Notes: generated from the sequence alone by a model not told the origin. A DNA stretch of 55,920 nt from Myxococcales bacterium (GCA_016707895.1 JADJGV010000034.1:885625-941544); one strand, 5' to 3'. Positions 1 through 50,530 are shown, counted from the first letter of the stretch. Program-made: numbers and translations.

Positions 1-30
1 GCGAGCCTACGCCGAAGGGCGCCTTGTCGC

Positions 31-1095: not shown

Positions 1096-1148
1096 CGCGC
1101 CACGGCCGGGCCCCGCAGGTGCGGCGGCGCGCGGGCGATCCGCGCCCG

Positions 1149-2279: not shown

Positions 2280-2325
2280 CGCATCGACGGGCCGGGCTGT
2301 CTCGGCTGCGGGAGGCCGGGGCGGC

Positions 2326-3099
2326 CTACTTCGACGCGCCCGCGTCGGCGGCGCTGTCGTACTGCGCCTCGCAGCTGGCGGCGACCGTCGGGTTGGTGAG
2401 CTTGCACTGCTCGATGCCGAGCCGCCGCACCTGGGCTGGCGTGAACTGGTCGACGCAGAGCACGAGCTTGTCGCCCGACATCGAGCATGCGATCGCTGGC
2501 TTGGTCCAGGCGTCCTCCTTGCAGAGCCGTTCGATCAGCGCGGCGTCGGCGGCGGCCTGCTCCCTCACCCACGCGATCTCGGAGGCGCGCTCGTCCTTCA
2601 GGGCCAGCGCGGCGATCGCCTCGCAAGTGGGCTCGGGCCGCGGCTCGCCGGCGGCGGCGACGGCGCCGAGGACGCCGAGCATGGTCGAGCCGACGTCGAC
2701 CATGTCGCCGAGGACGGCCTGTTGGCCCTCGCCGTAGGCCCGCTGCATCGCGGTGGCGACGTGGTCGCGCTGGGCGGCGGTGAGCATGGCCTGGCAGCGC
2801 GCGGGGGGGGCGCCCGGCTTGACCGCGGCGATGCACGCGCGCAGCTCCGGTGACCATGCGTCGTCCTGACACACCTGGCGCAGGGCCGCCGCGACGCGTT
2901 CCCCGATCAGCGCGGCGTTGCGCTGCTGGCTGGCGGACATGTCCTTGGCGGCCTTGCCCTGGACCTTGACCTGACCAGCCTTGGCGGCGATCTCGTCGCA
3001 GCTCGCCGGCCTGGCGGCGCCGGCCGGGTCGTGCTTCTTGCAGCCCCCGGCGACCGCGCCGGTCAGGAGCCCCACGCTGAGTACCATCGAGAACTTCAT
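2326..3099 (-). CDS. secreted lipoprotein, Cys-rich, unknown function
   Basis: Internal Met start [20 protein letters not shown] gives a signal peptide with a lipobox (AGGC). The mature part has many Cys and charged residues. A C8 run lies in the coding strand at 2803-2810. Confidence 0.55.
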
Positions 3100-3353
3100 C
3101 CGCGCTCCTCCTCCGCCCTCGACGTAGCCGCACGCGCCGCGGTGCATGCGAGGGCGACGCGCACCATCGCGGGTGCGGTCGACGAAGTCAACCGCGACGG
3201 TCGGGCGGCGTGAGGCCTGGGTGCGGCGCTCGCCGACGCCGGTCGGCGCGTCCGTCGGGGCGGTACGCGACCGCACGCGCGGTCTACGCCGGCGACGGTG
3301 CGATCATCGCGCACGAGGACTCCACCGAGCGCATACTCGCGTTGGGGAATCGC

Positions 3354-6575: not shown

Positions 6576-6595
6576 CGCACGCGCTCGTCGTGGCC

Positions 6596-7078
6596 TCAGC
6601 CCGCGGCCTCGCCGGCGAGGTACTCGGCCAGTTTGTCCATCGTGCCGTTGCCGATCTCGACCGCGCCGAAGCCGATCACCGCGTCGCGCCGCGCCTTGGT
6701 CGGGTGGAGCTGGCGCAGCGTCAGCACGGTCTTGCCGTTGCTCTGGGCGTCGAGCGTGATCGTCACGCGGAACACGTCGGGGGCGTCGTCCCGGTCGGCG
6801 CCGTGATCGAACACCAGCCGCGACGGCGCGGTGATCTCGAGGAAGGTGATCCGGTTGTCGTAGATGACGCCGTTGTCGCCGACGAAGTCGAACCGCAGCG
6901 CGCCGCCGACGCGGATGTCGGCGTGGCGGATCCGGCAGTGGAAGCCGCGCGGCGCGAACCACGCGCCGACCCGCTCGGCCTCGGTCCACGCGCGGAACAC
7001 GCGCTCGCGCGGCGCGTCGAGCACGCGCGTGAGCACCACCTCGCGCGCCATGTCCCAGGTCGGATCGGGGGTCGTCAT
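6596..7078 (-). CDS. SRPBCC / AHSA1 (activator of Hsp90 ATPase homolog)-domain protein
   Basis: About 160 aa. EVVLTRVLDAPRERVFRAWTEAE..WF..FDFVGDNG..LTLRQL is characteristic of the AHSA1/SRPBCC fold. Its ATG overlaps the stop of the upstream arsR gene (ATGA). Confidence 0.6.
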   Translation of the reverse strand: MTTPDPTWDMAREVVLTRVLDAPRERVFRAWTEAERVGAWFAPRGFHCRIRHADIRVGGALRFDFVGDNGVIYDNRITFLEITAPSRLVFDHGADRDDAPDVFRVTITLDAQSNGKTVLTLRQLHPTKARRDAVIGFGAVEIGNGTMDKLAEYLAGEAAG

Positions 7079-7401
7079 GCGTCGGTCTCCTTGAGGTAGT
7101 CGGCCAGGCGATCGAGCCGCTCGTCCCACGCGCGGCGGGTGTGCTCGGCCCACCGGGTGACGTCGTCGAGCGCCGCGGCGCGCAGCGCGCACGGACGCTT
7201 CTTCGCGTCGCGGCTGCGCGTGATCAGGCCCGCGCGCTCGAGCACCTTCAGGTGTCGCGAGATCGCCGGCAGGCTCATCGCGAACGGCGCCGCGAGCTCG
7301 GTCACCGACGCGTCGCCGCGCGCCAGCCGCGCGACGATCGCGCGGCGGGTCGGATCGGCCAGCGCCGCGAACGTGCGGTCGAGCGTGGGGTCGGATTGCA
7401 T
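7075..7401 (-). CDS. ArsR/SmtB-family transcriptional regulator
   Basis: FAALADPTRRAIVARLARGDASVTELAAPFAMSLPAISRHLKVLERAGLI is the canonical ArsR winged-HTH region. Its stop overlaps the start of the downstream AHSA1 gene. Confidence 0.75.
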   Translation of the reverse strand: MQSDPTLDRTFAALADPTRRAIVARLARGDASVTELAAPFAMSLPAISRHLKVLERAGLITRSRDAKKRPCALRAAALDDVTRWAEHTRRAWDERLDRLADYLKETDA

Positions 7402-9633: not shown

Positions 9634-12617
9634 CACCGGCCTCCCTTGGCCGCGTCGCCGACCAGCTGCATCTTCATCTCGCCGGCCGGGATCTCCATCG
9701 CGATCGTCCCGATGCCGATGCCGATGGCCGACAGCTCCACCGCGAGCGGCACCGCGGCGACGTTGGCCAGCGAGATCTGGATCCGGCCGTCGGCGGTGAA
9801 GGCGACCGGGCCGGCGACGTCGACGGTGATGGGCTTGCTCGCCAGGTCGTGGCCGGCCAGCCCGGCGAGCAGCTTCATGCTGGGCGCGTCGAGGTACAGC
9901 GGCAGGCGGGCCCGCAGCGCGGCCTGGCCGTCGGCGCCGACGACGATGTGGCTCATCAGGGGTTGCCCGGCCGGCGTGCGCAGCCGCAACACCAGCTGCT
10001 GGGTGCGCTGGTCCGACAGCGTGCCGATCACCGCGACCGTCGCGTTCATGCTGAGCGACGTCCCGTACAAGATCTGCGGCGACAGCTCGACCGGGATGCA
10101 AGCGGCGACGGTGGCGCCGTCGATCGTGCAGGCGTGCTGCAGCGTCCCCATCGTCACCGGCAGCGCGCCCGACAGGTACATGCAGGCCTCGCGGGCGGGC
10201 GTGCCCGGGACACAGTCGGGGCCGTTCAACGTCGCGCTGCGGACCATGCCGCTGGTGCCGACGATCCGCATCGCCGCGCGGTTGGTGCTGCTGGCCACCT
10301 CGCCCGCGTCGAGGACGCCGTTGCCGTTGCCGTCGGCGACCGGCCACGCGCGGGTGGTCATGGCGTAGCGATCGGCGCTGGCCGGCGCGGCGACGAACGG
10401 CAACACCAGGTCGGCGCCGCCGGCGTCGCCGCGGTCGGCCAGGCCGTCGAGGACGTCGCTGTTGAACGGCAGGCGGTTGCGCCCGCACAGCTCGCCGGCG
10501 TCGCAGTCGCCGTCGTCGCCGCCGTGGATCACGACCCGGTAGCGGGCGCCGGGCTCCCAGCCGCCGTCGGCGATGAAGCTCAGGCGGTCCTCGCCGACCA
10601 CCAGCCGGCCGCGCGCCACGCCGGTGCAGGCGCCGCTCGGGTCCAGGCGCTCGACGCGCACGCTGCCGGTGCCGCACGCCGTGCCCAGCGTGACGGTGCC
10701 GCGATCGAGCGGCTGCTGGAACGTGAGCTCGACCGGCAGGTCGGCCGCCAGCGCGAACGGCGCGTAGCGATCGTCGGACGACGCGCCGTCGCGGCACCGG
10801 CCGGGGCTGGTCGCGGTGGCGCCGTCGAGGGCGCACGGCACGCCGGGCCGCGCCGCGGCCAGCGCCAACGGCGCCGGGGCGCTGGTCGCCAGGTCGACGG
10901 TGCGGAAGCCGAGGCGGGTCGGCGCCGCGGCGGTGCCGGCCAGGTCGCGCACCATGCCGCTGACCTCGAGCGTGTAGGCGGCGCCGTACGCCAGCGGCTG
11001 GCGCGGCGTGACGATCAGCGTGCTGCCGTCGACCCGCACCCGCACCGGCACCGCGGCCGCGCCGGTCAGCGTGACCGCCCCGTCGCGCGTGGCCGCGGCG
11101 GCGTCGAGCCCCTCGGCGAACGTCACGCGCAGCGCGGCGTCGGCGGGGACGTCGCGAGCGCCGTCGGCCGGGAACGTCGACGTGACGCGCGGCGGGGCGT
11201 CGTCGCCCGGCGCGGCGCGCGCGGTGGTGGTGCTGAGCCGCAGCACCATGTTCGACGTCGCGCGATCGAGGCCGAGCAGGTCGAGGTCGAGGCCGCCGAC
11301 GCTGTCGATCTCCAGTCCGCCGTCGTAGATGCGGGCCAGGCCGGTCGCCTGCACGCCGAGCACCTGCTGGTTCAGCGCGGCGTTGCCGACGGCGTCGGAC
11401 GCGGTCACGACGACGTCGAACGCGAGGTAGGCCGCGACCGGCGCGAGTTCGTCGTCGGGGAGCCGCGCGGGATCGCGGAACGGGTTGCGCGCCAGATAGA
11501 CGGTGGCGTCGGCGGCCATCTGGACCTGCAGCGGGCCGGTGGTGAGCGGCGTGGCGATCTCGCCGCCGAGCTTCACCGGCAAGGGTTGCATCGTCAGGCG
11601 TTGGCCCTTGCGCAGGGTCAGCGGGATGAGCGGCCCGAACCCGGCCGGGTTGGCCATCACCGCGGCGAGCGTGTTGTCGACCATCGCGATCGTTGCGTCG
11701 CCGATCAGCGGCGCGGTCAGCTCGACCTGGTTGATGAAGCCGCCGGCGGCGTACGACGGCTCGCGGCCGGGGATGCACGCCAGCACCTGCGCGAGCTCGC
11801 GGCCCCCGACCCGCGACGGCAGCGGCGCCAGCTCGAACGCCACCGGCGCCAGCGCGTCGCCGCTCAGATCGTGCAGCCCCGCGCCGAGCTCGAGCCGGTA
11901 GCGCGGGCTGTTGGTCAGGTCGGCGACCGGATCGATCGTGAGGTGCGGCCCCTGGGTCAGCAGCGCGGCCTCGACCAGCGCGCCGTCGGCGTCGACCAGC
12001 CGGACGGTGTCGCCGTAGACGGCGGTGGCGGGATCGAGCGGCTCGCTGAGCGCGACGCGGATCGTCGTGAAGTCGACGAACGGGAAGCGCGGCGTCGCGC
12101 CGCTGCCGGCGACGTACGCGGCCGGGTCGTCGCCGTTGACGGCGATCACCGTCGGGGCGCGGCCGCCCAGCGACGTCGGGTTGCCGGCGGTGAACCGCAC
12201 GAGCGGCGCCGCCGCGTCGAGGTTCGTCGCCTTGCCCCACAGCACCGCCGGTCGGACGAACACCTCGTACGTCGCGCCAGCCTCCCAGGCCGCGCTCTCC
12301 AGGAGCACCACGTTGTCCTTGGGCCCGGCGACCAGCACCGGCGTCGCCACCAGGCCGCCCGGGCCACGGACGCAGAACGCACCGACGACGCCGCCGTCGG
12401 CGCCGAGCGAGCACCCCGCCGTCACCGCCGCCACGTCGACCGGGTCGGTGAAGCTCACGACCAGCCGGGCGCCCAGCGGGACGTCGCGCTGGCCGTCGTG
12501 GGGATAGCTGAAGATCACGCCCGGCTCGCTGGTCAGCGGCGGCGGGCCGTCCTCCCCGACCTCGCAGCCGGCGGTGGCGATCAGGACGGCAGGCCAGAGA
12601 CGACGCCAGTGGACCAT
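9633..12617 (-). CDS. large secreted lipoprotein with SbsA-type Ig-like domains (994 aa)
   Basis: Signal MVHWRRLWPAVLIATAGC (lipobox). Repeated FSYPHDGQRDVP..VSFTDPVD and TSTFPADGARDVPADAALRVTF modules resemble SbsA Ig-like domains. Long beta-rich body with many Cys. Confidence 0.65.
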   Translation of the reverse strand: MVHWRRLWPAVLIATAGCEVGEDGPPPLTSEPGVIFSYPHDGQRDVPLGARLVVSFTDPVDVAAVTAGCSLGADGGVVGAFCVRGPGGLVATPVLVAGPKDNVVLLESAAWEAGATYEVFVRPAVLWGKATNLDAAAPLVRFTAGNPTSLGGRAPTVIAVNGDDPAAYVAGSGATPRFPFVDFTTIRVALSEPLDPATAVYGDTVRLVDADGALVEAALLTQGPHLTIDPVADLTNSPRYRLELGAGLHDLSGDALAPVAFELAPLPSRVGGRELAQVLACIPGREPSYAAGGFINQVELTAPLIGDATIAMVDNTLAAVMANPAGFGPLIPLTLRKGQRLTMQPLPVKLGGEIATPLTTGPLQVQMAADATVYLARNPFRDPARLPDDELAPVAAYLAFDVVVTASDAVGNAALNQQVLGVQATGLARIYDGGLEIDSVGGLDLDLLGLDRATSNMVLRLSTTTARAAPGDDAPPRVTSTFPADGARDVPADAALRVTFAEGLDAAAATRDGAVTLTGAAAVPVRVRVDGSTLIVTPRQPLAYGAAYTLEVSGMVRDLAGTAAAPTRLGFRTVDLATSAPAPLALAAARPGVPCALDGATATSPGRCRDGASSDDRYAPFALAADLPVELTFQQPLDRGTVTLGTACGTGSVRVERLDPSGACTGVARGRLVVGEDRLSFIADGGWEPGARYRVVIHGGDDGDCDAGELCGRNRLPFNSDVLDGLADRGDAGGADLVLPFVAAPASADRYAMTTRAWPVADGNGNGVLDAGEVASSTNRAAMRIVGTSGMVRSATLNGPDCVPGTPAREACMYLSGALPVTMGTLQHACTIDGATVAACIPVELSPQILYGTSLSMNATVAVIGTLSDQRTQQLVLRLRTPAGQPLMSHIVVGADGQAALRARLPLYLDAPSMKLLAGLAGHDLASKPITVDVAGPVAFTADGRIQISLANVAAVPLAVELSAIGIGIGTIAMEIPAGEMKMQLVGDAAKGGR

Positions 12618-12836
12618 GACGCTCCTCGAGGCAGACGCGCAGCGGCGCGACCGGATCGTCGCGAGGTGCCGCCGCCGCCACGGGCGGTCATTGCACGGCC
12701 CGATCCAGCCGACCGCAGGGCGCCGGCCGCCGTGTTCCAGGCGGTTGCGCGCGGTGGGAACTACCGTGCGGGGAGTGGCGTCCGGGCGCTGAGGACTTGG
12801 CCCCCCATGGCGTCAGTTGCCCCCAGCGTCGCGCGG

Positions 12837-19821: not shown

Positions 19822-19832
19822 GACAGGCCTCG

Positions 19833-19904
19833 ACCTGGTGGCACGACTTGCACGTGCGCCCGCCCGGTATCAAGCCGGGTGCTCTGCTGCTGAGCTACAC
19901 CAGG
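19833..19904 (-). tRNA. tRNA-like element (72 nt, class I cloverleaf, anticodon UGA; atypical D- and T-loops; possible pseudo-tRNA)
   Basis: On the minus strand the sequence reads CCTGGTG-UA-GCUC-AGCAGCA-GAGC-A-CCCGG-CUUGAUA-CCGGG-CGGGC-GCACG-UGCAAGU-CGUGC-CACCAGG-U. All four stems are perfect Watson-Crick. U8, A14, G15, C48, T54, C56 and C61 are conserved. G19 and U55 are missing, position 37 is U, and there is no encoded CCA. Confidence 0.45.
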
Positions 19905-22210: not shown

Positions 22211-25200
22211 TCAGGCGCGGCGCAGCGCCTCGAGGTCGCGGATCAGCTCGGAGTAGGCGACCGGGTCGACGTCGCCGAAGGTCGCGCCGGCCGAGAGGTG
22301 GAGCTCGCCGAGCGTCTGGGGTCGCGCACCGTCGGCGAGGTCGGCGATCTCGAAGCCCGGCGACAGCTCGATGGTGGCCACGGCCACGCCGCCGCGGGTC
22401 GCGACGGTCCGCCGGTACGCGGCGACGCTGCCCGGGCTGCTGCGCTCGAACCCGCGCGCCTCCAGGACGCCGAGCAGCGTGACGGTCGGCACGCCGAGGC
22501 CGGCGAAGCGCGACGAGCGCGCGGCCGCCACCTCGGTCGGCGGGCACGCGTAGGTCTCGCGCGTCAGCTGGGCGAAGGGCTGGATGAGCTCGTAGTCGGC
22601 GAACACCCCGGCCCAGGCGCGCACGTCGTCCGCGAGCTCGAGCGGATGCGCCACGCTGACCCGGCAGGCCGGCCCCAGCGTGAGCAGCGCGTCGTCGACG
22701 GTGGCGAACGTACCGTCCTCGGCGACGCGGTAGGTCGCGGCGCGGTCGCCATCGACGGCGCGCCACACCAGCGCGCGCGCGAGCGCGGCCAGCAGCGGAT
22801 GCGCCACGACGCGCTGCTGGAAGTCCGGCAGGCTCCAGCGTCGGCCGCGCACCATCGCGTGCTCGAGGCGCCGGAGCTGGCGATCCGCGGTGGCGGCGGC
22901 GTCGGCCTTGAGCGCCTTGAGTCGCGCGAGCGCCGCGTCGGCCAGCGCCGGGTCGTCGTCCTTGGTCTTGCGCGGCAGGCCGCGGAGCGTGGTGCCGCGC
23001 TCGTCCTTGACGACCAGGGCGAGCCCGGCGTCCAGCGACGCCGTGAAGGTCCGCGCGCCGAACGACACCCGCAGGCGCCCGTCGCCATCGAGCCCGAGGT
23101 CGGGCACGGTGCGATCTTCCAGCGCGTCGCGGTCGAGCCCCCGCGCCGCGGCGGCTTCGTCGAGCAGCGCGTTGACCACGCCGCGCAGGTCGTGGAACCG
23201 CGACGTCGCGGCGATGTGGCCGAGGTGCATGATCGCCGCGTCGCTGGCCAGCGCGGCGAGCGCCACGCAGGCGCGCTCGGCCTTGGCCTTGTCGCGCCGC
23301 GCCCAGTCCCGCGCCAGGGCGGGCAGGCGTCGCTCGCTCTCGGGGCTGGGGAAGTAGACGACGGCGTGCAGCATCCACGCGTGGCGCCCGGGGCTGTCGG
23401 CCAGGAGCCACTGCTCGAGGAGGCCATGGGCGAACGCCCCGAGCGACGCCAGATCGAGCGCGGCGAGGCGCGCCAGCCCTGGATACGGCGCGTCGAGGGA
23501 AGAGATCGAGACCATCTCGACCAGCGCGGCGATCGCCGGCGCTGGCAGGGGTTCGCCGCTCGCCAGGCGCACGCGCGGCAGCCGCTCCAGCCGCAGGAAC
23601 GCGGGCAGCTTGGGCGGCGCCAAGCGCACGCGCAGCGGATCGCGCTCGAGCAGCGCGTCGATGACGCCGGCCGCGTCGGCGCCGTAGCGCGCGGCGGCGG
23701 CGGTGACGACGGCGGCGTGCCCGGCGGTCGCGAGGAAGGCCAGCGCCGCCTCGGCGTCGTCGCGATCCGGCCCCAGCGCCCCCACCGCGGCGGGGATCAA
23801 GCCGAGCGCGGCGGTCTCGGCGTGCGCCGCCAGCCAGGCGCGCGCCGCGCGGCGGTGGGCCTTGCGCCGCGCCGCGATGCGCGCGAACAGCGGGGCCGCC
23901 CGCGGCGACACGAAGCTCACGATGGCCGCCAGGAAGTCGTCGGCGCCTTCGTAGTCGAGGTTGCCGAGCCGGTCCTTGTGCAGGAAGCCAGGGAGGGCCG
24001 CCAGCCCGTGGCGTGCCACCCAGGCGACCGCCTCCGTGTCGAGCCACCCGCCCCCCTGGTTCCAGGTGTCGAGGCTGAGCCGGGCAGGGCGCGCGTCGTC
24101 GTCGCGCTCGTGGTCGTGGGCAGCGGGGGGCAGTTCGACGTGCTCCTCGAGGCCCGGCAACAGCGCGACACCCTCGAGCACGCGCCCCTTGGGGGGCGGC
24201 TGGCGCCACGGCCGCTCGCGCAGCACCGCTGGCAGCGCCACCTCGGGAGCCGGCGCCGTATCGTCACCGGCGGCGGCCGTGACGACGCGCTTGGCCAGCG
24301 CCTTGCCCTTGGGGCCGGTGGCCAGCGCCTCGGCCAGCTCGGGATGATCCTGGAAGTAGCCGGCGACGATCGCGTTGAGGATGGGGTGCCCCGCGTAGGC
24401 CGCGAGGATCCGCGCCGCGGCCTCGCTCGCGAAGCAGGTCAGCGCCGTCGCCAGGTCGCGTGGCGGGGTCTTTAGGACCGGGCCGTAGCCGGGCTTGGCG
24501 AGCGCCCCGGGGATCGCGGCGCCGAGGAGCGCCAGCGCGTCCGCCTCCGGCACGCTGACGGCGATCTCCGCGGCGTAGAGCCCCAGCGTGAATGGCGCGA
24601 CGCTCCCGCCGAAGCGGCGTACCAGCGCGGGCTCGCGGCAACAGCTGAGCAGGAACTCGACGTCGCGCCGCGGGTCGTCGGGCGGCTCGCCGAGCCAGGC
24701 CGTCAGCGCCGCGTCGCCCCAAGGCTCGTCGGGGAACGCGTACGCCAGGTGCGCCGCGATCCACGGCGCGGCGCCGGCGCCGAGCGCGCGCGCGCGGTCC
24801 CGCGCGGCCGCGTAGTCCGCGTCGCGCGCTGCGCACACCGCGCTGCGGATCGGGCGCCACGCCTCGCCGACCCACGAGGCCTTCGTCGCGTCCTTGCGGA
24901 GGTAGATCTCCTGGGTCCAGTTGCCGGGCGAGTCGACGCTCAGGTCGAGCGCGAGGCGCGCCGCCTCGACCAGATCGGCGACGCCGCGGGCCTCTGCCAG
25001 CGCCGGCGCGATGGGCAGGTCGCGATCCAGCCGATGCGCCATGCACATGAACGCCGCCAGCGTCTCGAGGCTGGCGTCGGCCAGCCGCGCGCGCGTCAGG
25101 TCGTCGATCAGCGCATGGGCCGCGGCCCGCAGCGGCGCGAGCTCGGGCAGGTAGCTCGACTGGACGCCGCGCGCCAGCGCCGCGCGATACGTGAACCGCC

Positions 25201-25318
25201 CGTGCGTGAGCTTGGCGCGCAGCGCCTCGATCGGCTTGCGCGCGGGCGCGGCGATCGTCGCCGGGATGGCCCGGCGTGGCCTGAGCGAGCGCAGCACCGC
25301 GTCCGGGATCGTCTGCAT
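22211..25318 (-). CDS. large helical-repeat protein, DUF4132-like C-terminal domain (1035 aa)
   Basis: Intact 1035-aa ORF starting MQTIPDAVLRSL. The C-terminal region (...LRRLEHAMVRGRRWSLPDFQQRVVAHPLLAALARALVWRAVDGD...) resembles DUF4132 (the MolR-like family) as I recall it. I could not verify the match. Confidence 0.45.
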   Translation of the reverse strand: MQTIPDAVLRSLRPRRAIPATIAAPARKPIEALRAKLTHGRFTYRAALARGVQSSYLPELAPLRAAAHALIDDLTRARLADASLETLAAFMCMAHRLDRDLPIAPALAEARGVADLVEAARLALDLSVDSPGNWTQEIYLRKDATKASWVGEAWRPIRSAVCAARDADYAAARDRARALGAGAAPWIAAHLAYAFPDEPWGDAALTAWLGEPPDDPRRDVEFLLSCCREPALVRRFGGSVAPFTLGLYAAEIAVSVPEADALALLGAAIPGALAKPGYGPVLKTPPRDLATALTCFASEAAARILAAYAGHPILNAIVAGYFQDHPELAEALATGPKGKALAKRVVTAAAGDDTAPAPEVALPAVLRERPWRQPPPKGRVLEGVALLPGLEEHVELPPAAHDHERDDDARPARLSLDTWNQGGGWLDTEAVAWVARHGLAALPGFLHKDRLGNLDYEGADDFLAAIVSFVSPRAAPLFARIAARRKAHRRAARAWLAAHAETAALGLIPAAVGALGPDRDDAEAALAFLATAGHAAVVTAAAARYGADAAGVIDALLERDPLRVRLAPPKLPAFLRLERLPRVRLASGEPLPAPAIAALVEMVSISSLDAPYPGLARLAALDLASLGAFAHGLLEQWLLADSPGRHAWMLHAVVYFPSPESERRLPALARDWARRDKAKAERACVALAALASDAAIMHLGHIAATSRFHDLRGVVNALLDEAAAARGLDRDALEDRTVPDLGLDGDGRLRVSFGARTFTASLDAGLALVVKDERGTTLRGLPRKTKDDDPALADAALARLKALKADAAATADRQLRRLEHAMVRGRRWSLPDFQQRVVAHPLLAALARALVWRAVDGDRAATYRVAEDGTFATVDDALLTLGPACRVSVAHPLELADDVRAWAGVFADYELIQPFAQLTRETYACPPTEVAAARSSRFAGLGVPTVTLLGVLEARGFERSSPGSVAAYRRTVATRGGVAVATIELSPGFEIADLADGARPQTLGELHLSAGATFGDVDPVAYSELIRDLEALRRA

Positions 25319-25433
25319 GCCAGTCCGGACTCTCGCCCATCCGGCGGCGCCGCGGAAGCGCCGCCGCGCGTCCGACGGTGCCGCGACGAGCGGCGCGACC
25401 ACCGATGGCCCGCGCTCGGCCGATTCAGGCGGC

Positions 25434-25444
25434 GGGGGGGGGGG
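25434..25444. repeat. G11 homopolymer tract in intergenic/promoter region
   Basis: Eleven consecutive G at 25434-25444, about 115 bp upstream of the DUF4132-like gene start and 90 bp downstream of the MpaB stop. Confidence 0.9.
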
Positions 25445-25532
25445 CGGTTAGACGGGTCACCGTGCACAGACGACCCAGCGCGAGCCAGCCCGTCGCGGCG
25501 CGCCGGCGGCGACCACGTTCAGCGCGCCGACG

Positions 25533-36137: not shown

Positions 36138-39089
36138 TCAGTCCGCGGCGATCGCGGTGAGCGAGCGCTCGACGCCGCGCGCGAGGCCGACCGTCACGGT
36201 GGTGCCGGCGGGCACCTGGAGCAGGTCCCAGCCGAGCTCGAGGCGCAGGCCCTTCACGTCGTGGCCGTCGACGGTGACGATGGTGTCGCCCGCGACGAGG
36301 CCGGCCTGCGCGGCGGGCCCAGGGCTCACTTCGCTGATCGTGAGCGCGCGCGTCCGCGGATCGGCGTCGGGCGCGGGCTGCACGAACGCCCAACCGAAGT
36401 CGCCCGGCCTGCCGTCGTCGCCGCCCCGGCGCTCGACCATGGGCACGTCGCCGACGTCGTGCACGGGGCCGCCGGTGAGCTCGACGATCCAGCGGACCAA
36501 GGGCCACCGCGCGTCGCGCTCGGCGTTCAGGCCGACGACGTAGACGAGGCCCGCGGGCGCGTTCGGCACGGTGAAACGGCCGCCGGCGTCGCTCAGCTCG
36601 GCGCCGTCGCCCCCCGCCGCGATGGACGGCACGCCGGCGCCCGCGCCGGCGGTCGGGGTGACGTGCGCGCGGACGCCGGGCACCGGCGCGCCCGTCGCGA
36701 GGTCGACGAACCGGCCGGTCACGACGCGCTTCGACTCGAGGACGAGCGCGACGCCGGTCCGGTCCTCGCCGGCGGCGAGCGGCACCGTCGCCTGCACGCG
36801 GCCCGCGGCGCTGTCGACGGCGACGACGAACGCGCCGGCCGGCAGGTCGCGCACGACGAACGCGCCGCCGGTGCGGGAGAAGCGCTCGCGCCGCTCGAAG
36901 CCGGTCTGCACGTCGGAGACGGCGAGCTCGAACGTCTCGGGCGCGCCGCTGCTCGCGACCGTGACGGTGCCGGCGATCGAGCCGGTGCTCAGGATCGTGA
37001 GCGTCGTGTCGCTGCCGGTCGCGACGTGCTCGACCGCGGCCTCGCCGCCGCCGCGCCGGTACGCGCGCACCGTGTGGCGCCCCCGGCCGAGGCCGCCGAC
37101 GGTGAAGCGGCCATCGGTGCGGGTGAGCACCGGCCGATCGGTGCGGCCCCACGTCCAGCGGGTCTGGCGCACGCCGGCACCCGCCGCGACCCCCGGTCCG
37201 TCCGGCTCGCGCACGGCGACGACCCACGCGTCGCCCACCGGTTCGCCGCGCGCGTCCTGCACGACCCCGGTGATCGCGCCGTCCTGCGCCTCGACGACGA
37301 GCCGCACGGTCGCGGTCTGCCCCGCGGCCACCGTGACCGGCTCGCCGCGGTCATCGCCAGCGGCCGCGCCCGGGCGTTGCACGGGCTCGAACCTGCCGCG
37401 CGACACGGTCACGCGGTGCGGGCCCGGCTCGACGCCGTCGATGCGGAACGTGCCGTCATCACCGGTCGCGACCCCGCCGTCGAGCATCCGGATCTCGGTC
37501 GAGACCCGCACGCCGGCCACCGGCTGGCCCGCCGGATCGACGACGATCCCGGCGACGGCGCCGCTCGCCGGAAAGACGATGTCGGCGGTGGAGCCGCCGC
37601 CCGGCGCGACGGTCACCGTCAGGGGCGGCGCTGCGTCGACCTGACCGTTCACGCTAGCCTCGAGCTGGTAGGTCCCGCCTCGCAGGCCGGTCAGGCGATA
37701 GACGCCGTCGTCGCCCGAGCGCGCGAACGCGCCCGGGAAGAACTCGCCCGCGTCCGTGGCCCGCGCCGACACCCACGCGTCGCCGAACGGCGCGCCGGCG
37801 GCGGTCCTGACCGTGCCGGTGATGACGGCGCCCGGCGTCACCGTGAGGATCAGGTCCGCGTGGTCGGCGCCGGCGGCGACCTCGACGGGCGGGTACTTCT
37901 GCTGCGCGGCCTGGTCGTTGCACCTGACGCGCACCTCGTAGCGCCCCGGCACGAGGGACAGGATCGCGAAGGTCCCGTCGAGCTCGATCGAATCGGTCGC
38001 GCGTGCCCGCGATGCCGCATCGGCCAGCATCACGGCGCCGCGCGGACACGGCTCGACCTTGCCCCCGCCGCGATCGATCACCACGGTGCCGCGCACGCGG
38101 CTCGCCGGGTGTACGACGACCACGACGCCGTCCACGTGCTGGCCCAGGCCGAGCAGCACGCTCTCGCCGGCTTCGCCGCGGTAGCCGTCGCCCGACGCGA
38201 CCGGCTTGTAGCGCCCGGGGACCAGCCGCGTCAGACGGAAGCGGCCCTGCGCGTCGCTGCGCGTGCTCGCCCCCGGCTCGTCGTCGTCGAGCGCGACGGC
38301 GACGATCGCGCCGTCGACCGGCCGCGCGTCGCCCGCCGTGACGACCGTGCCCGACAGGCTCGACTCCGGCGTCAGCAGGATCTGCGCGCGCGCGGTCGGC
38401 GCCGACACGTCGCTGTCGCCCGGGGCGTATCCGTCTGCGTGCGCGCCGAGGTGGGCCGGACCCGGCGCGGTCCACAAGGCAAAGCGTCCCTGTTCGTCGG
38501 TGCGAGTGGTCGCGGCGACACCGACCACGGTCCCCGCCGAGATCGCCACCAGCGCGCCGACGATCGGCCCCCCGCTCACGTCCTCGACGGTGCCGCTCAC
38601 CTTCACGCCGCCGGGCGGCAGCGCGAAGTCCACGCCGGTGCGCACCTCGCCTGGCGCGAGTCGAAAGCTGTCGAGCTCGCCCAGCGCGTTGAGCCACGGC
38701 CGCGCGAGGTGCCCGGCGGCGCTCGCGGCGAGCGCGTGGCGCACCGGCAGGAGGTCCTCGAGCGCGTACGCGCCGGCGGCGTCGGTCGTCGCGCACGGCG
38801 GCGCGCGCCACTCGTCGGAGGCGAGGCCATCGGTCGCGAAGCGCGAGCACACCTGCGCGCCGGCGATCGGTCCGCCGCCCGCCGTGCGTACCGTGCCGCG
38901 GACCGCGGCGCGCGGCTGCGTGCGTGGATCGTTCGGCGCGGTCTTCCCGGCCGCGCCGCGCGCGCGACCTCCCGCGACCTCGGCGCCGGCCGCGCCGCGC
39001 GGCTTCGACGAGCGAGCGCGATCGCGCCGCCACCACAGCGCGACCAGGACGACGATCAGGGCGACCACGACCGCAGCGATCCGCTTCAC
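36138..39089 (-). CDS. membrane-anchored protein with ~9 carboxypeptidase-regulatory-like (CarbopepD_reg) domains and a C-terminal PDZ domain
   Basis: N-terminal TM helix MKRIAAVVVALIVVLVALWW. Repeated ~80-aa modules (GTVxxxxGxPxxGAxVxxxx...TDxxGxFxLxxLxPGxYxL). C-terminal PDZ-like LTISEVSPGPAAQAGLVAGDTIVTVDGHDVKGL. Confidence 0.65.
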   Translation of the reverse strand: MKRIAAVVVALIVVLVALWWRRDRARSSKPRGAAGAEVAGGRARGAAGKTAPNDPRTQPRAAVRGTVRTAGGGPIAGAQVCSRFATDGLASDEWRAPPCATTDAAGAYALEDLLPVRHALAASAAGHLARPWLNALGELDSFRLAPGEVRTGVDFALPPGGVKVSGTVEDVSGGPIVGALVAISAGTVVGVAATTRTDEQGRFALWTAPGPAHLGAHADGYAPGDSDVSAPTARAQILLTPESSLSGTVVTAGDARPVDGAIVAVALDDDEPGASTRSDAQGRFRLTRLVPGRYKPVASGDGYRGEAGESVLLGLGQHVDGVVVVVHPASRVRGTVVIDRGGGKVEPCPRGAVMLADAASRARATDSIELDGTFAILSLVPGRYEVRVRCNDQAAQQKYPPVEVAAGADHADLILTVTPGAVITGTVRTAAGAPFGDAWVSARATDAGEFFPGAFARSGDDGVYRLTGLRGGTYQLEASVNGQVDAAPPLTVTVAPGGGSTADIVFPASGAVAGIVVDPAGQPVAGVRVSTEIRMLDGGVATGDDGTFRIDGVEPGPHRVTVSRGRFEPVQRPGAAAGDDRGEPVTVAAGQTATVRLVVEAQDGAITGVVQDARGEPVGDAWVVAVREPDGPGVAAGAGVRQTRWTWGRTDRPVLTRTDGRFTVGGLGRGRHTVRAYRRGGGEAAVEHVATGSDTTLTILSTGSIAGTVTVASSGAPETFELAVSDVQTGFERRERFSRTGGAFVVRDLPAGAFVVAVDSAAGRVQATVPLAAGEDRTGVALVLESKRVVTGRFVDLATGAPVPGVRAHVTPTAGAGAGVPSIAAGGDGAELSDAGGRFTVPNAPAGLVYVVGLNAERDARWPLVRWIVELTGGPVHDVGDVPMVERRGGDDGRPGDFGWAFVQPAPDADPRTRALTISEVSPGPAAQAGLVAGDTIVTVDGHDVKGLRLELGWDLLQVPAGTTVTVGLARGVERSLTAIAAD

Positions 39090-39317
39090 CGGTCGACCCT
39101 AGCGCGGCTCCCGCGCGCGCCGGATCGCGAACGCCGCGACGCAGGGGGCGACCGTGGATCGGTCACATCAGGCTCCCTTCCTACCGAGTGGCAGCCGATC
39201 GGCGCGGCCGCGCCAGCGCGTCGCCGCGCCGGTCACCGCGCGCGCAACCACGCCGCGTAGCGCGCGCGTCCATCGCCGCCTTCGAGCGCGGCGACGAGCA
39301 TCGCCCCCTCCTCGCAC

Positions 39318-39509
39318 ATGGCGACGAGCCCGACGAACATCCCCGCGGGCAGCACACTCTTTGTGGATGCCTACGACGAAGACATCGCGGAGGACGACCC
39401 CATCATGCGTTGCCAGTTCGCTCCCCTCACGGCCGACTTGCTGCACGTCGGCGAAGGGGTCTGCTCCGGTGCGATCGGTACGCTGACCGTCCGCTTCTCG
39501 ACCAACTGA
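39318..39509 (+). CDS. candidate small acidic protein (63 aa)
   Basis: ORF MATSPTNIPAGSTLFVDAYDEDIAEDDPIMRCQFAPLTADLLHVGEGVCSGAIGTLTVRFSTN lies in a 500-bp intergenic region. GC3 is about 85% although local GC is lower, so codon usage supports coding. No homology is inferable. Confidence 0.25.
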   Translation: MATSPTNIPAGSTLFVDAYDEDIAEDDPIMRCQFAPLTADLLHVGEGVCSGAIGTLTVRFSTN

Positions 39510-39595
39510 CGCATCGTCGACGGTCGATCTGGACCCGCCCAGTCGCAGCCACCCGGATCGGGGCTGATGCCGCGCGAGCCGGGCCGAGGGCGTCG

Positions 39596-42500
39596 TCAGC
39601 CCGGCGCCAGCAACGCGAACGCCTCGTAGAGGACGGCGGGCAGCGGCGCGTCGAGGTGCCAGGTGATGGCGATCGGTCGATCGCCGTCGTGGCTGCGGTA
39701 GGTCGCGCCGCCCAGGAAGACGTAGGGCTCGTCCTTCGCGGTCTGCACGAACAGGAAGAAGCGCCAGCCATTGGTCGCGCTGTCGAGGTACCGCCGCCCG
39801 GCGGCGCTGGCCACCCGCGTGCGACCTTGGGTCTCCCACAGGAACAGGTCGCGGCTGATCGCGCGATCGCGGTAGCTGGTGGTCGGTGAGAAGTTCCCGC
39901 TCGACTTGTCGAGCGTCACGAACAGGAGCTCACGGCGCGACGCGTCGAGCTTGAGGATGCCGGCCTGCGGCACGCTGATCTTGTCGCCGCTGGCGCGATC
40001 GCCGACCGCGGTGACGATCTCGTAGCGGCTGTAGCGCCGGTGCAGCGCCAGCGGCCAGTCGGCCTCGGGGTAGACGTCGCCCGCGAGCCCGGGCTTGTCC
40101 TCGAGCACGGCGGTCAGCTCGCGCAGCTCGGCCCGGACCGCCGGGCGCGCTCGGTACCAGTCGGCCACCTCCTCGGCCGCGCGCAGGACGCCGCGCTTCT
40201 GGAGCTGCGCGTCGAGCATGGCCAGGCGGCGCGCGTCGAGCGGCCCCGGGGGTGGCGCGCCGTCGTCGGTGAGCGCGCGGTAGCGGCGGAGCCGCGTCGG
40301 TTCGTCGACGTGGCACAGCCGGCCGAGCCCGCGGCTCGCGAGGTCGGCATCGACATCGGGGGCCGCGAGGCCGGCGGCGACCTGGACGTCGCGCCAGCCG
40401 GCGTCGCCGGTGTACACGTCATCGAGGGGGCGCCCGGTCTCGCGCAGGAACCGCGTCAGCGTGACCGGCGCGCCGTCCGGCTCGGCGGTCGCCCGCTCGT
40501 GCAGCTCGTGCAGCTCCCGCAGCTCGCGGCCGAGGCGCGCCACGCCTCGGCCCAGCGTGCGGCGCAGCGAGTCGAGCACCTGGTCGCGGGCCACTCGATC
40601 GAGCTCGAGCGCGCAGCCGCTGGGCAGGTGCGGGAAGCCGTGCTCGATGGCCTCGCGTAGCCGCGGCCGCGGCAGGCCGGTCAGCGTCGCCAGGATCGCG
40701 TCGTACCGGTACTCCTCGCGGTGCTGGCCGATGAAGTCGAGCACCAGGCACGCGGTCTTGCCCGGGAACAAGCGCAGGCCGCGGCCGAGCTGCTGCTGGA
40801 ACAAGGTCGCGCTGGCGGTCGGGCGGAGGAGCAACAGCACGTCGACGAACGGCAGGTCGACGCCCTCGTTGTACAGGTCGCACGTGAAGACCAGGTTCAC
40901 CTCGCGGTCACGGAGCCGGCGCCGCACGTCGTCGCGCAGCGCCGCGGGGCTGCCGCCATGGACCGCCACCGCCGGCACGCCGAGCGCGGTGGCCTGCGCG
41001 GCCATGTACTCGGCGTGCTCGACGCTCACGCAGAAGCCCAGCCCCCGCACCGCGCGCAGGTCGGCGACGCGGCGCGCGAGCTGCGCCACCACCAGGCGCG
41101 CCCGCGCCTCGTTGCCGGTGTAGAGCCCGGCCAGCGCCGCGGCGTCGTAGCCAGTGCGGGTCCAGCGCACGCGCCGCAGGTCGGTGCCGTCGGTCAGGCC
41201 GTAGTACTCGAACGGCGCGAGGAGCTGCTGCGCCAGCGCGTCGGGCAAGCGCAGCTCGGCGGCGATGCGATCGTCGAAGTCCGGCAGCAGCGACTGCCCG
41301 TCGCTGCGCTCGGGGGTGGCGGTGAGGCCGAGCAGCAGCTGCGGGCGCAGCGCCCGCAGGACCGCCTGGTACGAGGGCGCGGGCAGGTGATGGCACTCGT
41401 CGATCACCACGTAAGCGAAGTGCTCGGCGCCGAGCTGGTCGAGCAGGCGCCCCGCGCTCTGGATGGTCGCGAACACGTGGTCGCCGCGCGCGATCGTCGC
41501 GCCGCCGGCGATCAGCTCGCCGAACCCGCCATCGAGCAGGACCTCGCGGAACGTGTCGCGCGCCTGCTCGACGATCTCCACCCGGTGCGCCAGGTACAGG
41601 AGCCGCGGCGGCGCCGCGGGCGCCTGACGCGCGTAGTCGAACGCGGCGATGACGGTCTTGCCCGTACCGGTGGCGGCGACCACGAGGTTGCGCGTGTGGC
41701 CGCGCTCGACGCGCTCGGCGCGCAAGCGGTCGAGGATGATCTGCTGATACGGGTACGGCTGTGGCGCCAGGCGGCGCGGCGCGGGGCGCGGCGCGGCGTC
41801 GCGTTGGAGCGCGCCGGCCAGCTGGTCTCGGTGGGTCGGGTCCCGCGGATCGTAGCGCTGGAATTCCGGATCCTGCCAGAGGGTCTCGAAGGTGCCGGCG
41901 AAGTGGTCGATCACGTGCGGCAGGTCGCCGCTGGACACCTTCACCACCCACTCGTGGCCGGCGCCGAGCGCCGTGGCGGTGAGGTTGGCCGAACCGACGT
42001 ACGCCGTGGACAGGCCGTTGGCGCGGTGGAACAACCACGCCTTCGCGTGTAGCCGCGTCCGGCGCGTGTCGAACGACACCTTCACTTCGGCGCCGGGCAG
42101 CTCGGCCAGGCGGTGCACCGCCTCGACCTCGGTGGTGCCGGTGAAGGTCGTGGTCAGCACGCGCAGGCGGGTGCCGCTCGACGCCAGCGCCAGCTGTCCG
42201 AGCGCGTCGGCCAGCACGCGCACCCCGCCGATGGTGATGAACGCGACGATGACGTCGACCCGATCGGCGCTGGCGATCTCGCGACGCAGCTCGGAGGCCA
42301 GCCCGGGCTCGAGCGGGCCGCGGGTGAACAGGGTCGAGGCGGTGAACGTCGAGTCGGGACGCAGCGGCCTCGGCCCCGTCCCCACGGCCCACAGCTGGCG
42401 CGGCGGTGGCAGCAGCCGCTGCGCGCGGATGGGCCCGGCGTCGCCATCGTCGAACGCCAGGGTCGTCGCGATCTCCGCCAGCACGCGCTCGACCAGCGCC

Positions 42501-42691
42501 GAGCTCGCCGCGACGCGCGCGTGCTCGTCGAGCGCCGCCAGCGCCCGTCGCACCTCGGTGGCGACCAGCCGCGCGACCTCGCCCGGCAGCTGATCGGGCC
42601 GCAGGTCGCGCAGCTCGGCCACGGACTCGCCGAGCGCCTCGGCGAGCGCCTCCGTCAGCGGATGCTCGTACAGCCCTGGCGCCAGCGGCAT
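39596..42691 (-). CDS. PLD-family nuclease / SF2 (ResIII-type, DEAH) helicase / DUF3427-like C-terminal domain fusion protein (1031 aa)
   Basis: N-terminal PLD-like HxK motif (RLHAKAWLFHRANGLSTAYVGSANLT). Helicase motif I VVAATGTGKT, motif II VIDECHHL, motif III LGLTATPER, motif VI QQLGRGLR. About 300-aa C-terminal domain after the helicase. Start chosen at MPLAPGLYEHP (42691). Confidence 0.75.
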   Translation of the reverse strand: MPLAPGLYEHPLTEALAEALGESVAELRDLRPDQLPGEVARLVATEVRRALAALDEHARVAASSALVERVLAEIATTLAFDDGDAGPIRAQRLLPPPRQLWAVGTGPRPLRPDSTFTASTLFTRGPLEPGLASELRREIASADRVDVIVAFITIGGVRVLADALGQLALASSGTRLRVLTTTFTGTTEVEAVHRLAELPGAEVKVSFDTRRTRLHAKAWLFHRANGLSTAYVGSANLTATALGAGHEWVVKVSSGDLPHVIDHFAGTFETLWQDPEFQRYDPRDPTHRDQLAGALQRDAAPRPAPRRLAPQPYPYQQIILDRLRAERVERGHTRNLVVAATGTGKTVIAAFDYARQAPAAPPRLLYLAHRVEIVEQARDTFREVLLDGGFGELIAGGATIARGDHVFATIQSAGRLLDQLGAEHFAYVVIDECHHLPAPSYQAVLRALRPQLLLGLTATPERSDGQSLLPDFDDRIAAELRLPDALAQQLLAPFEYYGLTDGTDLRRVRWTRTGYDAAALAGLYTGNEARARLVVAQLARRVADLRAVRGLGFCVSVEHAEYMAAQATALGVPAVAVHGGSPAALRDDVRRRLRDREVNLVFTCDLYNEGVDLPFVDVLLLLRPTASATLFQQQLGRGLRLFPGKTACLVLDFIGQHREEYRYDAILATLTGLPRPRLREAIEHGFPHLPSGCALELDRVARDQVLDSLRRTLGRGVARLGRELRELHELHERATAEPDGAPVTLTRFLRETGRPLDDVYTGDAGWRDVQVAAGLAAPDVDADLASRGLGRLCHVDEPTRLRRYRALTDDGAPPPGPLDARRLAMLDAQLQKRGVLRAAEEVADWYRARPAVRAELRELTAVLEDKPGLAGDVYPEADWPLALHRRYSRYEIVTAVGDRASGDKISVPQAGILKLDASRRELLFVTLDKSSGNFSPTTSYRDRAISRDLFLWETQGRTRVASAAGRRYLDSATNGWRFFLFVQTAKDEPYVFLGGATYRSHDGDRPIAITWHLDAPLPAVLYEAFALLAPG

Positions 42692-42898
42692 CGCCCGATG
42701 ATAGGAGCTCGCGGCGCTGCCGTCAGGGGTCGGCGCGCCTGTTGGCGCAGCGTCTGCGGTGATGGACGCCGGCGGCGACAGGGCGCGCGCTGCATGCTCA
42801 GGCCGTCGGGCCGGCTTGTTGCCACCGCTGGCAGCCGATCGGAATGGCGGCGCCACCCGCGCCGCATCACCCGGCATGGGGCTGCCACCCGCGTGGCG

Positions 42899-44206
42899 TC
42901 AACCGCGCTCACCCATCCAGTCTTCGGGCAACCCGGCGCGCAGCCGCGTGGCCAGCGCGCGGAGGCCGTCGATCGCGTCGGCCACGTCGTCATCGGCGCG
43001 CGCGGAGAGCACCTCGCCGAAGGTGAAGCCGATCGCGTCCGGCGCCCGTGGCGGTGGACCCGGGGCGCTCGCGCCGCGCCGATGGGCCAGGTCGCTGGTG
43101 GTCGATCGCAGCGCCGCGGCCAGGTACGCGTGGGACTCGCGGCGGTCCTCGGCCAGCGCCGCCGCGAGCTCGCGGTGGCACCAGCGCTGATCGATCGCCG
43201 CGAGCAGCGACGCCATCTCGCACACCGCGATCGGCACGTCACTCCGCAGCGCGCGGCGCACCAGCGGCAGCGCGCGGTCGGGCAGCCGCTCGAGGGCGAG
43301 GGTCGCGAAGTCGGCGAGGAGCGGGTGCCCGCCGTAGCCCGCGACCCGCGAGAGCCCGGCCCAGGCGTCGAAGCGCTCGCGCACGAGCTCGCGCTCGAGG
43401 TCGCGTTCGAGCAGGTAGGCGCAGGCCTGGTACGGCGAGAACGGATGATCGACCGCGACGTCGGCGCGGCGGAGCGCCTCGGCGACCGCCGCCGTCACGT
43501 CGACGTCGGGCCGCGCGCGCAAGAGCTCGATGGCGCGACCCTCGTGCCAGTCCTTACGGCCGAACAGCGGCCGGCACAGGCCCACGGCCTCCTCGGCGGT
43601 GGTCCCGCGCAGGGCCAGGGGTAGCAGGTCGCCGGGGCGCTCCGACGCGTGGACCCTCATCGACAACCACGCCCGGTGGGCGGCGACGTGGGCCTCGTCA
43701 CCGCCCGGTTCGATGATGGCCAGCCAGCGCGCCCGGCCGTCCGCGGTGTCGAGCTCGGCGGCGACCTCGCCGGCGCGCGCCTCGAGCTCCGGCGCCAGCG
43801 TGACGTGGTTCTTGTACTTCGTCGTGTACCGCACCAGCCCGACGGCGGCGAGCTCGTGGATCCCATCAACGATCACGTCGTCCGATGGGCGCCAGCGCCA
43901 GAGGCGCGGCTCGGCGATGCGGGTCGGCGACGTCGCGAGCGACGCGACCCGGGCCGTGAAGAACCACGTGTCGATCACCTCGCCGGTCTCGGTCAGGAAG
44001 TCGGCGTCGAGCAGCTCGCCGTCGGGGCCGGTCAAGCACAGGCCGATGCCGTGGCGGCGGTAGGTCCAGCCTGCATGCCCCGGCAGGTCGCCGTCGTCGT
44101 CGTCGCGGTCGAGGGCCGCGCGCGCGACCGCGTGGTGCCAGCGCTGGCGCTCGCGCTGCACGAGGAGCGCGACGACCAGCCAGCTCAGGTGCGGTGGGCC
44201 CCACAT
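42899..44206 (-). CDS. hypothetical protein (435 aa), immediately upstream of the nuclease-helicase gene
   Basis: Intact ORF with diverse composition. Acidic run DRDDDDGD near the N-terminus. No motif recognised. Confidence 0.45.
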   Translation of the reverse strand: MWGPPHLSWLVVALLVQRERQRWHHAVARAALDRDDDDGDLPGHAGWTYRRHGIGLCLTGPDGELLDADFLTETGEVIDTWFFTARVASLATSPTRIAEPRLWRWRPSDDVIVDGIHELAAVGLVRYTTKYKNHVTLAPELEARAGEVAAELDTADGRARWLAIIEPGGDEAHVAAHRAWLSMRVHASERPGDLLPLALRGTTAEEAVGLCRPLFGRKDWHEGRAIELLRARPDVDVTAAVAEALRRADVAVDHPFSPYQACAYLLERDLERELVRERFDAWAGLSRVAGYGGHPLLADFATLALERLPDRALPLVRRALRSDVPIAVCEMASLLAAIDQRWCHRELAAALAEDRRESHAYLAAALRSTTSDLAHRRGASAPGPPPRAPDAIGFTFGEVLSARADDDVADAIDGLRALATRLRAGLPEDWMGERG

Positions 44207-50474: not shown

Positions 50475-50530
50475 GCGGCGTAGCCTAGCCTGGGGCCGCC
50501 GTGGCAGCCGATCGGATCGCCGGCTCCGCG

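Follow-up and report, generated by a model that had tools for sequence, protein, structure and literature searches.

What kind of enzyme is encoded by the long minus-strand gene at positions 39596-42691 of a 55,920-nucleotide stretch of Myxococcales bacterium DNA (GCA_016707895.1 JADJGV010000034.1:885625-941544), and does this enzyme act alone, as part of a larger system, or in DNA repair? We refer to the whole stretch that was analysed as the window and to the product of the gene as the window protein. An initial annotation had described the product as a fusion of a PLD-family nuclease, an SF2 helicase and a DUF3427-like domain, and had proposed a stand-alone defence or DNA-processing module, possibly assisted by the gene directly upstream. 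Our analysis indicated that the product is very likely a SauUSI-family member: a Type IV restriction endonuclease directed against modified DNA, driven by ATP and able to act on its own as one polypeptide, with its activity predicted by homology. The enzyme is an ordinary, diverged addition to this well-studied family and does not represent a new system. The gene is the following feature:

39596-42691, minus strand: SauUSI-like gene, an intact open reading frame (ORF) of 1031 codons plus TGA, with its ATG at 42691 and its TGA at 39596-39598.

SauUSI of Staphylococcus aureus USA300 is a single-chain ATP-dependent Type IV enzyme that cuts S5mCNGS/S5hmCNGS DNA, carrying 5-methylcytosine (5mC) or 5-hydroxymethylcytosine (5hmC), and is not accompanied by a methylase (PMC3141236). 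In the crystal (PDB 7CLG) it forms a homodimer, and each chain contains a PLD nuclease, SF2 ATPase, helical coupler and recognition domain with an SRA fold (PMC7913695). A single-molecule study described how 5mC sets off translocation, with formation of loops and repeated rounds of cleavage (bioRxiv 10.1101/2025.10.16.682607). The window protein matched the full-length PADLOC mREase_IV profile PDLC03659 almost completely (E 4.5e-210, 698 bits), with residues 109-1022 aligned to positions 14-936 of the 945 in the profile, and a second SauUSI-type PADLOC model, PDLC03658, was matched with E 3.3e-68 and 228 bits. By sequence, the best match in the PDB was SauUSI itself (7clg_A, E 1.2e-71 over residues 138-669, the alignment starting at query residue 138 and SauUSI residue 47), with a second aligned stretch in the recognition domain (880-998 versus SauUSI 802-916). 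A Foldseek search of the PDB placed both SauUSI chains (7clg) on top, with E 1.4e-37 over 930 aligned columns, followed by RadD at 5e-17 over the helicase core only, the nearest folds after SauUSI being RadD, LlaBIII, XPB and HsdR. Because the match to SauUSI extended over the whole fold, the DUF3427 domain of the window protein is predicted to be an SRA-like base-flipping reader, as in SauUSI. The earlier call of a stand-alone, defence-type nuclease-helicase was correct. The accompanying statement that the architecture was experimentally uncharacterised proved wrong, since this architecture is that of SauUSI, with its biochemistry, structure and single-molecule mechanism described in the three studies cited above. 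The comparison drawn with Nhi and type II Mokosh found no support, as neither system's model was among the 19 PADLOC matches, and the PLD anti-phage profiles were matched weakly (PADLOC PLD_Helicase, 14.7 bits, E 0.0015; NF042964, 21.4 bits versus a cut-off of 1100).

The domain composition given in the initial annotation was correct, with all four Pfam families above their curated cut-offs: PLDc_2 at residues 137-272 (E 6.8e-9), ResIII at 311-462 (E 4.8e-33), Helicase_C at 550-640 (E 2.2e-9) and DUF3427 at 878-1025 (E 1.8e-18). Further domain matches were to the RE_NgoFVII N-terminal PLD family in the nuclease part and to DEAD in the helicase part. Every motif quoted there was likewise found in the 1031-residue translation, including the nuclease motif HAK...GSANLT (H215, K217 and N236, with one HxK per chain) and the SF2 motifs TGTGKT (341-346), DECH (431-434), TATPER (457-462) and QQLGRGLR (633-640). 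An AlphaFold2 model was built from an alignment (A1) of 62 homologs with 56-92% identity and reached a mean predicted local distance difference test (pLDDT) score of 80.4; it showed a short disordered linker at 299-308 between the PLD and ATPase domains, two RecA-like lobes at 311-660 and a beta-rich C-terminal domain at 880-1026. From the N terminus to the C terminus, the protein is laid out on the DNA as follows:

42392-42691, minus strand: N-terminal helical extension, residues 1-100, with helices at 14-20, 35-52, 56-80 and 86-89, followed by a disordered linker at 101-130.
41804-42301, minus strand: PLD-family nuclease domain with a single HxK, residues 131-296; H215, K217, N236 and E247 lie within 41951-42049.
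40706-41761, minus strand: SF2 helicase-like ATPase/translocase core, residues 311-662, assigned from Pfam and motifs; Walker A TGTGKT at 41654-41671, DECH at 41390-41401, TATPER at 41306-41323 and QQLGRGLR at 40772-40795.
40097-40705, minus strand: all-helical coupler, residues 663-865, between the ATPase and the recognition domain, which it connects; the AlphaFold2 secondary structure consists of helices only.
39599-40096, minus strand: C-terminal target-recognition domain, DUF3427 with an SRA-like fold, residues 866-1031; predicted base-flipping reader of modified cytosine.

In the model, the coupler at 663-865 corresponds to the SauUSI coupler at 618-805 (PMC7913695). The likeness to SauUSI comprises the same single-chain order of PLD nuclease, flexible linker, SF2 ATPase, helical coupler and SRA-like DUF3427 domain, the same catalytic H, K, N and E, the same helicase motifs, and a solitary gene without an adjacent cognate methyltransferase.

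The combined match of the ORF, motifs and domains is far above chance expectation, and the G+C contents at the three codon positions of the 39596-42691 ORF (0.77/0.52/0.94) are the coding signature of a genome, and a window, of ~75% G+C. A public protein, P0001, consists of exactly the same 1031 amino acids and carries only the name "DUF3427 domain-containing protein". A longer frame starting from ATG 42877 (1093 amino acids) was considered and rejected. The start at ATG 42691 was preferred because P0001 is identical and begins there, and because orthologous DNA homology to two other loci, L016 (90% nucleotide identity) and L017 (80%), begins at 42716, 25 nucleotides before this ATG.

The helicase part could also be taken to indicate a housekeeping helicase-nuclease of the RadD or XPB kind that serves DNA repair or recombination and has no role in defence. 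The best NCBIfam match was indeed RadD/YejH (NF053632, E 2.1e-35), in line with the RadD and XPB structures that came after SauUSI in the fold search. However, the RadD match reached 122 bits versus a cut-off of 720 and was confined to the helicase core, RadD has no PLD or SRA domain, and the recognition domain of the window protein has the fold of modified-cytosine readers in restriction enzymes. These differences, together with the distribution of the gene considered below, make a repair function very improbable.

The catalytic residues of the SauUSI-type enzyme are well preserved. The four SauUSI residues tested by mutagenesis, H119, K121, N139 and E150 (PMC3141236), align to H215, K217, N236 and E247, none of which varies among the 62 homologs. 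In the same set, the Walker A, DECH, motif III (TAT) and motif VI (QxxGRGxR) sequences are likewise invariant. SauUSI has six modelled residues in its 5mC pocket (M829, Y831, F841, I842, D858 and W868), with Y831 as the predicted methyl contact (PMC7913695); four of the six, F841, I842, D858 and W868, align to F924, V925, D942 and W952, with D942 and W952 invariant.

Several observations weigh against the assignment to the SauUSI family. Identity to SauUSI is only 22-25%, and at the sequence level the match of the recognition domain is weak (19.8 bits). For the two remaining pocket residues, M829 and Y831, the alignment contains gaps and places Q909 and an invariant G911 opposite them. In the nuclease domain, the H(x)K(x)4[D/E] motif has H222 in place of its acidic residue. 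Finally, an N-terminal helical extension of ~90-100 amino acids has no counterpart in SauUSI or in the PADLOC profile, which starts at residue 109. Other differences from SauUSI concern the linker between PLD and ATPase (about 297-310), which is short and Pro/Arg-rich here and long and acidic in SauUSI, and the host, here a 75% G+C member of the Myxococcota.

The histidine at the HxK(x)4D position had been noted in the initial annotation, which had questioned the nuclease activity on this ground. The histidine is real: H222 occupies the position five residues after the lysine, the corresponding column contained H in 48, R in 6, Y in 5 and Q in 3 of the 62 sequences, and the acidic residue of the canonical HxK(x)4[D/E] was not encountered. 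In the HKD motif of PLD enzymes, this acidic residue is probably structural rather than catalytic. The doubt about the nuclease was unsupported: SauUSI has Glu at this slot (E126 in its motif 119-H(X)K(X)4E-126; PMC7913695), the slot varies, and it is not one of the four positions tested by mutagenesis. Because the position varies within the clade, it does not define membership in the SauUSI family, and, judging from the alignment, H222 is unlikely to decide whether the enzyme is active.

The divergence of the recognition domain bears on specificity. Because of the 22-25% overall identity and the 19.8-bit match of this domain, the specificity of SauUSI cannot be transferred with confidence, and because gaps in the alignment obscure the counterparts of M829 and Y831, we infer the exact modification and its sequence context only tentatively. 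A protein with the SauUSI scaffold and another output might read a different modification, such as a glucosylated or otherwise hypermodified base, or a modified base in another sequence context, or might have a weakened nuclease and act mainly as a modification-triggered translocase. No part of the protein has diverged further from SauUSI than the recognition domain, Y831 has no clear counterpart at the invariant G911 in the gapped region, and H222 replaces the acidic HKD residue; moreover, DUF3427 fusions are known that have little or no endonuclease activity in vitro and yet restrict T4gt in vivo (PMC6765204). On the other hand, the two positions that match the base-contacting D858 and W868 of SauUSI (D942 and W952) do not vary, nor do the four catalytic nuclease residues, and we consider such a change of output quite unlikely. 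The SauUSI-type restriction endonuclease remained the preferred interpretation.

The N-terminal extension and the pocket also delimit a branch of the family. Residues 1-100 were modelled with pLDDT values of 84-89, and Y8 and T13 of the extension are invariant in the 62-homolog alignment. A start motif, G-[LIV]-Y-[ED], is common to the homologs of Myxococcota, Methanoculleus, Methylobacteriaceae, Verrucomicrobiales and Actinomycetes, and is not found in that of Clostridium. Searches with residues 1-110 against Pfam (at E values up to 10) and against PDB sequences returned only noise, and phmmer against 1.84 billion representative proteins gave 10 weak matches, mostly short fragments, with no other architecture among them. 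The window protein fits PDLC03659 (698 bits) better than PDLC03658 (228 bits) and so differs from SauUSI in its PADLOC subfamily. The PDLC03659 group is a widespread subclade present in Myxococcota, methanogenic archaea, Verrucomicrobiales, Planctomycetota and Actinomycetes, and its marks are the N-terminal extension and the invariant Gly at the slot of the methyl-contacting Tyr of SauUSI. This subclade might differ from SauUSI in function, by reading a different or bulkier modification, or by using the extension to regulate or re-wire dimerisation and nuclease activation, although we judge this unlikely. What interest the enzyme retains lies in the specificity of its recognition domain, which is diverged, and in what the N-terminal extension does.

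By homology to SauUSI, we infer a series of steps, including dimerisation, translocation, specificity and activity in vivo, that would build on the directly observed domain order, folds, conserved catalytic and ATPase residues and lack of a conserved neighbour. Two chains would dimerise through their N-terminal PLD domains, so that two HxK motifs (H215/K217, with N236 and E247) would form one active site; dimerisation is implied by the single HxK per chain, from what is generally known of the PLD superfamily and from the SauUSI structure (PMC7913695). The C-terminal SRA-like DUF3427 domain would recognise a modified cytosine (most probably 5-methyl- or 5-hydroxymethylcytosine) by flipping it out of the incoming DNA, and the helical coupler would pass on this recognition, switching on the SF2 ATPase. 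The ATPase would then translocate on double-stranded DNA and bring the nuclease to the cleavage site, and repeated cycles would shred the modified DNA. The host would be spared by the lack of the modification in its own DNA, and therefore no partner methyltransferase or other protein would be needed.

Whether a partner exists was addressed from the surroundings of the gene. The candidate partner put forward in the initial annotation lies directly upstream on the same strand:

42899-44206, minus strand: gene for a 435-amino-acid protein, 207 bp away from the enzyme gene.

The position of this gene would suit a reading in which the window protein is the nuclease-motor subunit of a multi-gene system, comparable to MtsD of MANTIS, the R proteins of CglI/NgoAVII, or Type I/III enzymes, working with the 435-residue protein or another partner and perhaps on unmodified DNA. 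MtsD, an ATPase-PLD module similar to SauUSI, needs partner proteins (bioRxiv 10.64898/2026.09.23.753747), and the window protein had weak PADLOC/NCBIfam matches to Type I R subunits and PbeA. However, the 435-residue protein was not borne out as a partner: its gene, like the other window neighbours, was absent at all 23 homolog loci, as judged by tblastn for L001-L020 and from Pfam gene tables alone for L021-L023, and these loci include that of the 92%-identical ortholog (L016, amino acid identity). The tblastn queries were the 435-residue protein and four other window neighbours, with no match at any of the 20 loci searched. Conversely, two orthologs of the 435-residue gene (85% and 73% nucleotide identity) were found in other contexts, without a SauUSI-like neighbour. 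In addition, the window protein has its own coupler and SRA-like recognition domain, both of which are lacking in MtsD. The NCBIfam scores were far below threshold (EcoAI R, NF046051, 76.6 versus a cut-off of 550; Dnd restriction enzyme, TIGR04095, 50.7 versus 600), with no companion genes in the window. The reading as a subunit of a multi-gene system is already refuted for the most part, and we regard it as highly improbable.

The neighbouring genes of the window were annotated by our own ORF picking and Pfam scans, which covered 32 ORFs of the 56-kb window. No methyltransferase, specificity subunit, BREX-like gene or recognised defence family was found among the 32 Pfam-scanned ORFs, a result that applies to ORFs with a Pfam match and to this part of the genome; the Pfam content consisted of secreted repeat proteins (CarboxypepD_reg/PDZ, Kelch, FG-GAP, Big_5, CotH), TetR, SDR, PLP enzymes and DUF4132. 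The window is not a defence island, which taken by itself would favour a repair gene over a restriction enzyme. However, repair genes of the housekeeping type would not be expected to lack synteny even with a 92%-identical ortholog, nor to show a patchy taxonomic distribution that crosses the domains of life. More than 7400 relatives of the enzyme were found, versus 47 for the upstream 435-residue protein. Besides those in Myxococcota, homologs were found in Planctomycetota, Methylobacteriaceae, Verrucomicrobiales, Actinomycetes and Clostridium, and in Methanoculleus, where full-length identity is 38-41%. Distant homologs (<45% identity), annotated as DEAD/DEAH helicases or DUF3427 proteins, were also carried by large plasmids and by a small number of contigs that had been deposited as phage. 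The seven Pfam-annotated homolog neighbourhoods all differed from one another, and none of the seven had an adjacent methyltransferase. In L023, McrB/McrC genes (1-3741) lie about 4 kb upstream of the homolog, and in L021 a PLD protein, Uma2 and AbiEi_4 are encoded near it (5411-7313, 12125-12706); the other annotated loci contained ordinary genes. The patchy distribution and the differing neighbourhoods fit a solitary, horizontally exchanged Type IV enzyme rather than a syntenic housekeeping repair gene.

The DNA homology to L016 and L017 covers the enzyme gene and ends about 25-40 bp or less to either side of it. The upstream 435-residue gene shows the same gene-only homology in related Myxococcota metagenome-assembled genomes (MAGs), with 80-90% nucleotide identity for both genes and L024 included in the comparison. 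Gene order here shows no conservation at all between these genomes. Because this neighbouring gene behaves alike, low synteny is characteristic of the genomes in general and is no proof of a mobile cassette.

The comparison with other known systems separated the window protein from partly similar enzymes. The DUF3427-PD-(D/E)XK fusions McaZI, BwiMMI, EfaL9I and YenY4I (PMC6765204) share with it the DUF3427 sensor of modified cytosine. Unlike the window protein, they carry a PD-(D/E)XK instead of a PLD nuclease, have no ATPase motor and place the sensor at the N terminus. They restrict the 5hmC phage T4gt and are toxic in Dcm+ hosts (PMC6765204), and their genes are often located in defence islands beside methyltransferases, whereas the window gene is not. 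MtsD of MANTIS (Gao_RL) and the CglI/NgoAVII R proteins combine a PLD nuclease with an SF2 helicase-like ATPase, as does the window protein, and MtsD is structurally SauUSI-like. These proteins, however, have neither coupler nor SRA domain, depend on partners and target unmodified DNA; MtsD is encoded with MtsABC, and no such partners were present in the window. The SRA-nuclease Type IV/IIM enzymes (TagI, ScoA3IV, MspJI, LpnPI, AspBHI, AbaSI, PvuRts1I) are two-domain, ATP-independent proteins without a translocase, and their nucleases are of the HNH, PD-(D/E)XK or Vsr-like type.

The public "DUF3427 domain-containing protein" can be annotated as a SauUSI-family Type IV restriction enzyme. The new biology added by this assignment is little. 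If the enzyme is active, DNA from Dcm+ E. coli or DNA with other 5mC marks would be destroyed on entry into the host. The same restriction barrier made S. aureus hard to transform (PMC3312211), and it would become relevant if such Myxococcota are ever cultured and engineered.

The intergenic region of 207 bp (42692-42898) between the enzyme gene and the 435-residue gene was analysed for regulatory sequences. It contains one short conserved element:

42692-42716, minus strand: conserved proximal upstream box CGCCGCGAGCTCCTATCATCGGGCG, with the homology to L016 and L017 starting exactly at 42716.

The GAGCTCnTAnnnT box is conserved in the four orthologs of the window, L016, L017 and L018, where it ends 7 nucleotides upstream of the start codon, and there is no obvious Shine-Dalgarno sequence. 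A promoter scan returned CTGACG-17-TATCAT, with the -10-like TATCAT at 42698-42703 ending 7 nucleotides before the ATG. From these sequence features, the enzyme gene may have its own promoter and a leaderless or very short-leader mRNA.

The initial annotation had also pointed to a GGCAGCCGATCGG motif upstream of the gene. This motif is present in the intergenic region, at 42830-42842 on the plus strand, but it was absent from the 20 homolog loci searched and, because of this absence, is not a conserved regulatory part of the enzyme gene. The GGCAGCCGATCGG 13-mer (core TGGCAGCCGATCGG, palindrome CCGATCGG) has six sites in the window with at most one mismatch, versus 0.7 expected: besides the copy in the intergenic region, exact copies are located at 39190-39202 and 50503-50515, and copies with one mismatch at 42585, 49383 (minus strand) and 54799. 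At least two of the three exact copies are intergenic and upstream of minus-strand genes, and we read the motif as a feature of the intergenic regions of this genome that looks like a genome-specific regulatory or repeat element. Around the same core, a 27-nucleotide direct repeat (85% identical, core TGGCAGCCGATCGG) brackets the enzyme gene at 39189 and 42829. A mobile cassette bounded by these repeats was considered and found to be unsupported: the DNA shared with L016 and L017 does not reach the repeats, the motif occurs elsewhere in the window, it is absent from the 20 loci, and the neighbouring 435-residue gene shows equal gene-only homology. The repeats were equally unsupported as att sites or as a target-site duplication.

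The relatives of this neighbouring 435-residue protein form a small family with a DUF6896 domain that appears restricted in distribution, with all 47 belonging to Myxococcota (Kofleriaceae and Nannocystis), and the protein itself has a weak match to DUF6896 (25.1 bits versus a cut-off of 27). In L025, its ortholog adjoins an RHS/TcdB-type toxin gene and an Imm32-like gene, a setting that hints at an immunity-like or toxin-associated role.

Minor observations concerned a damaged homolog and other elements of the window. At 10001-13007 of L012, an uncultured Actinomycetes MAG, the homolog frame runs for 325 codons and then meets a stop, whereas tblastn similarity continues to query residue 896; this homolog has probably suffered a frameshift or has decayed. 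Around the enzyme gene, scans for Rfam families, tRNAs and terminators found nothing relevant. The sole Rfam/ARAGORN match in the window was a tRNA-Ser gene (anticodon TGA; 19832-19904, minus strand), 20 kb from the enzyme gene and with no sign of an integration site seen nearby. Convergent to the enzyme gene, a 63-codon ORF (MATSPTNIPAGSTLFVDAYDEDIAEDDP...; 39318-39509, plus strand) with a G+C content at third codon positions of ~0.84 is located in a lower-G+C intergenic stretch of ~500 bp (39098-39596); it had no homolog in any fetched locus. Immediately downstream of the enzyme gene, a 983-residue protein with seven CarboxypepD_reg repeats and a C-terminal PDZ domain is encoded at 36138-39089 (minus strand), and a DUF4132 protein of 1078 residues is encoded at 22211-25447 (minus strand). 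Both look typical of large myxobacterial proteins and unrelated to the enzyme.

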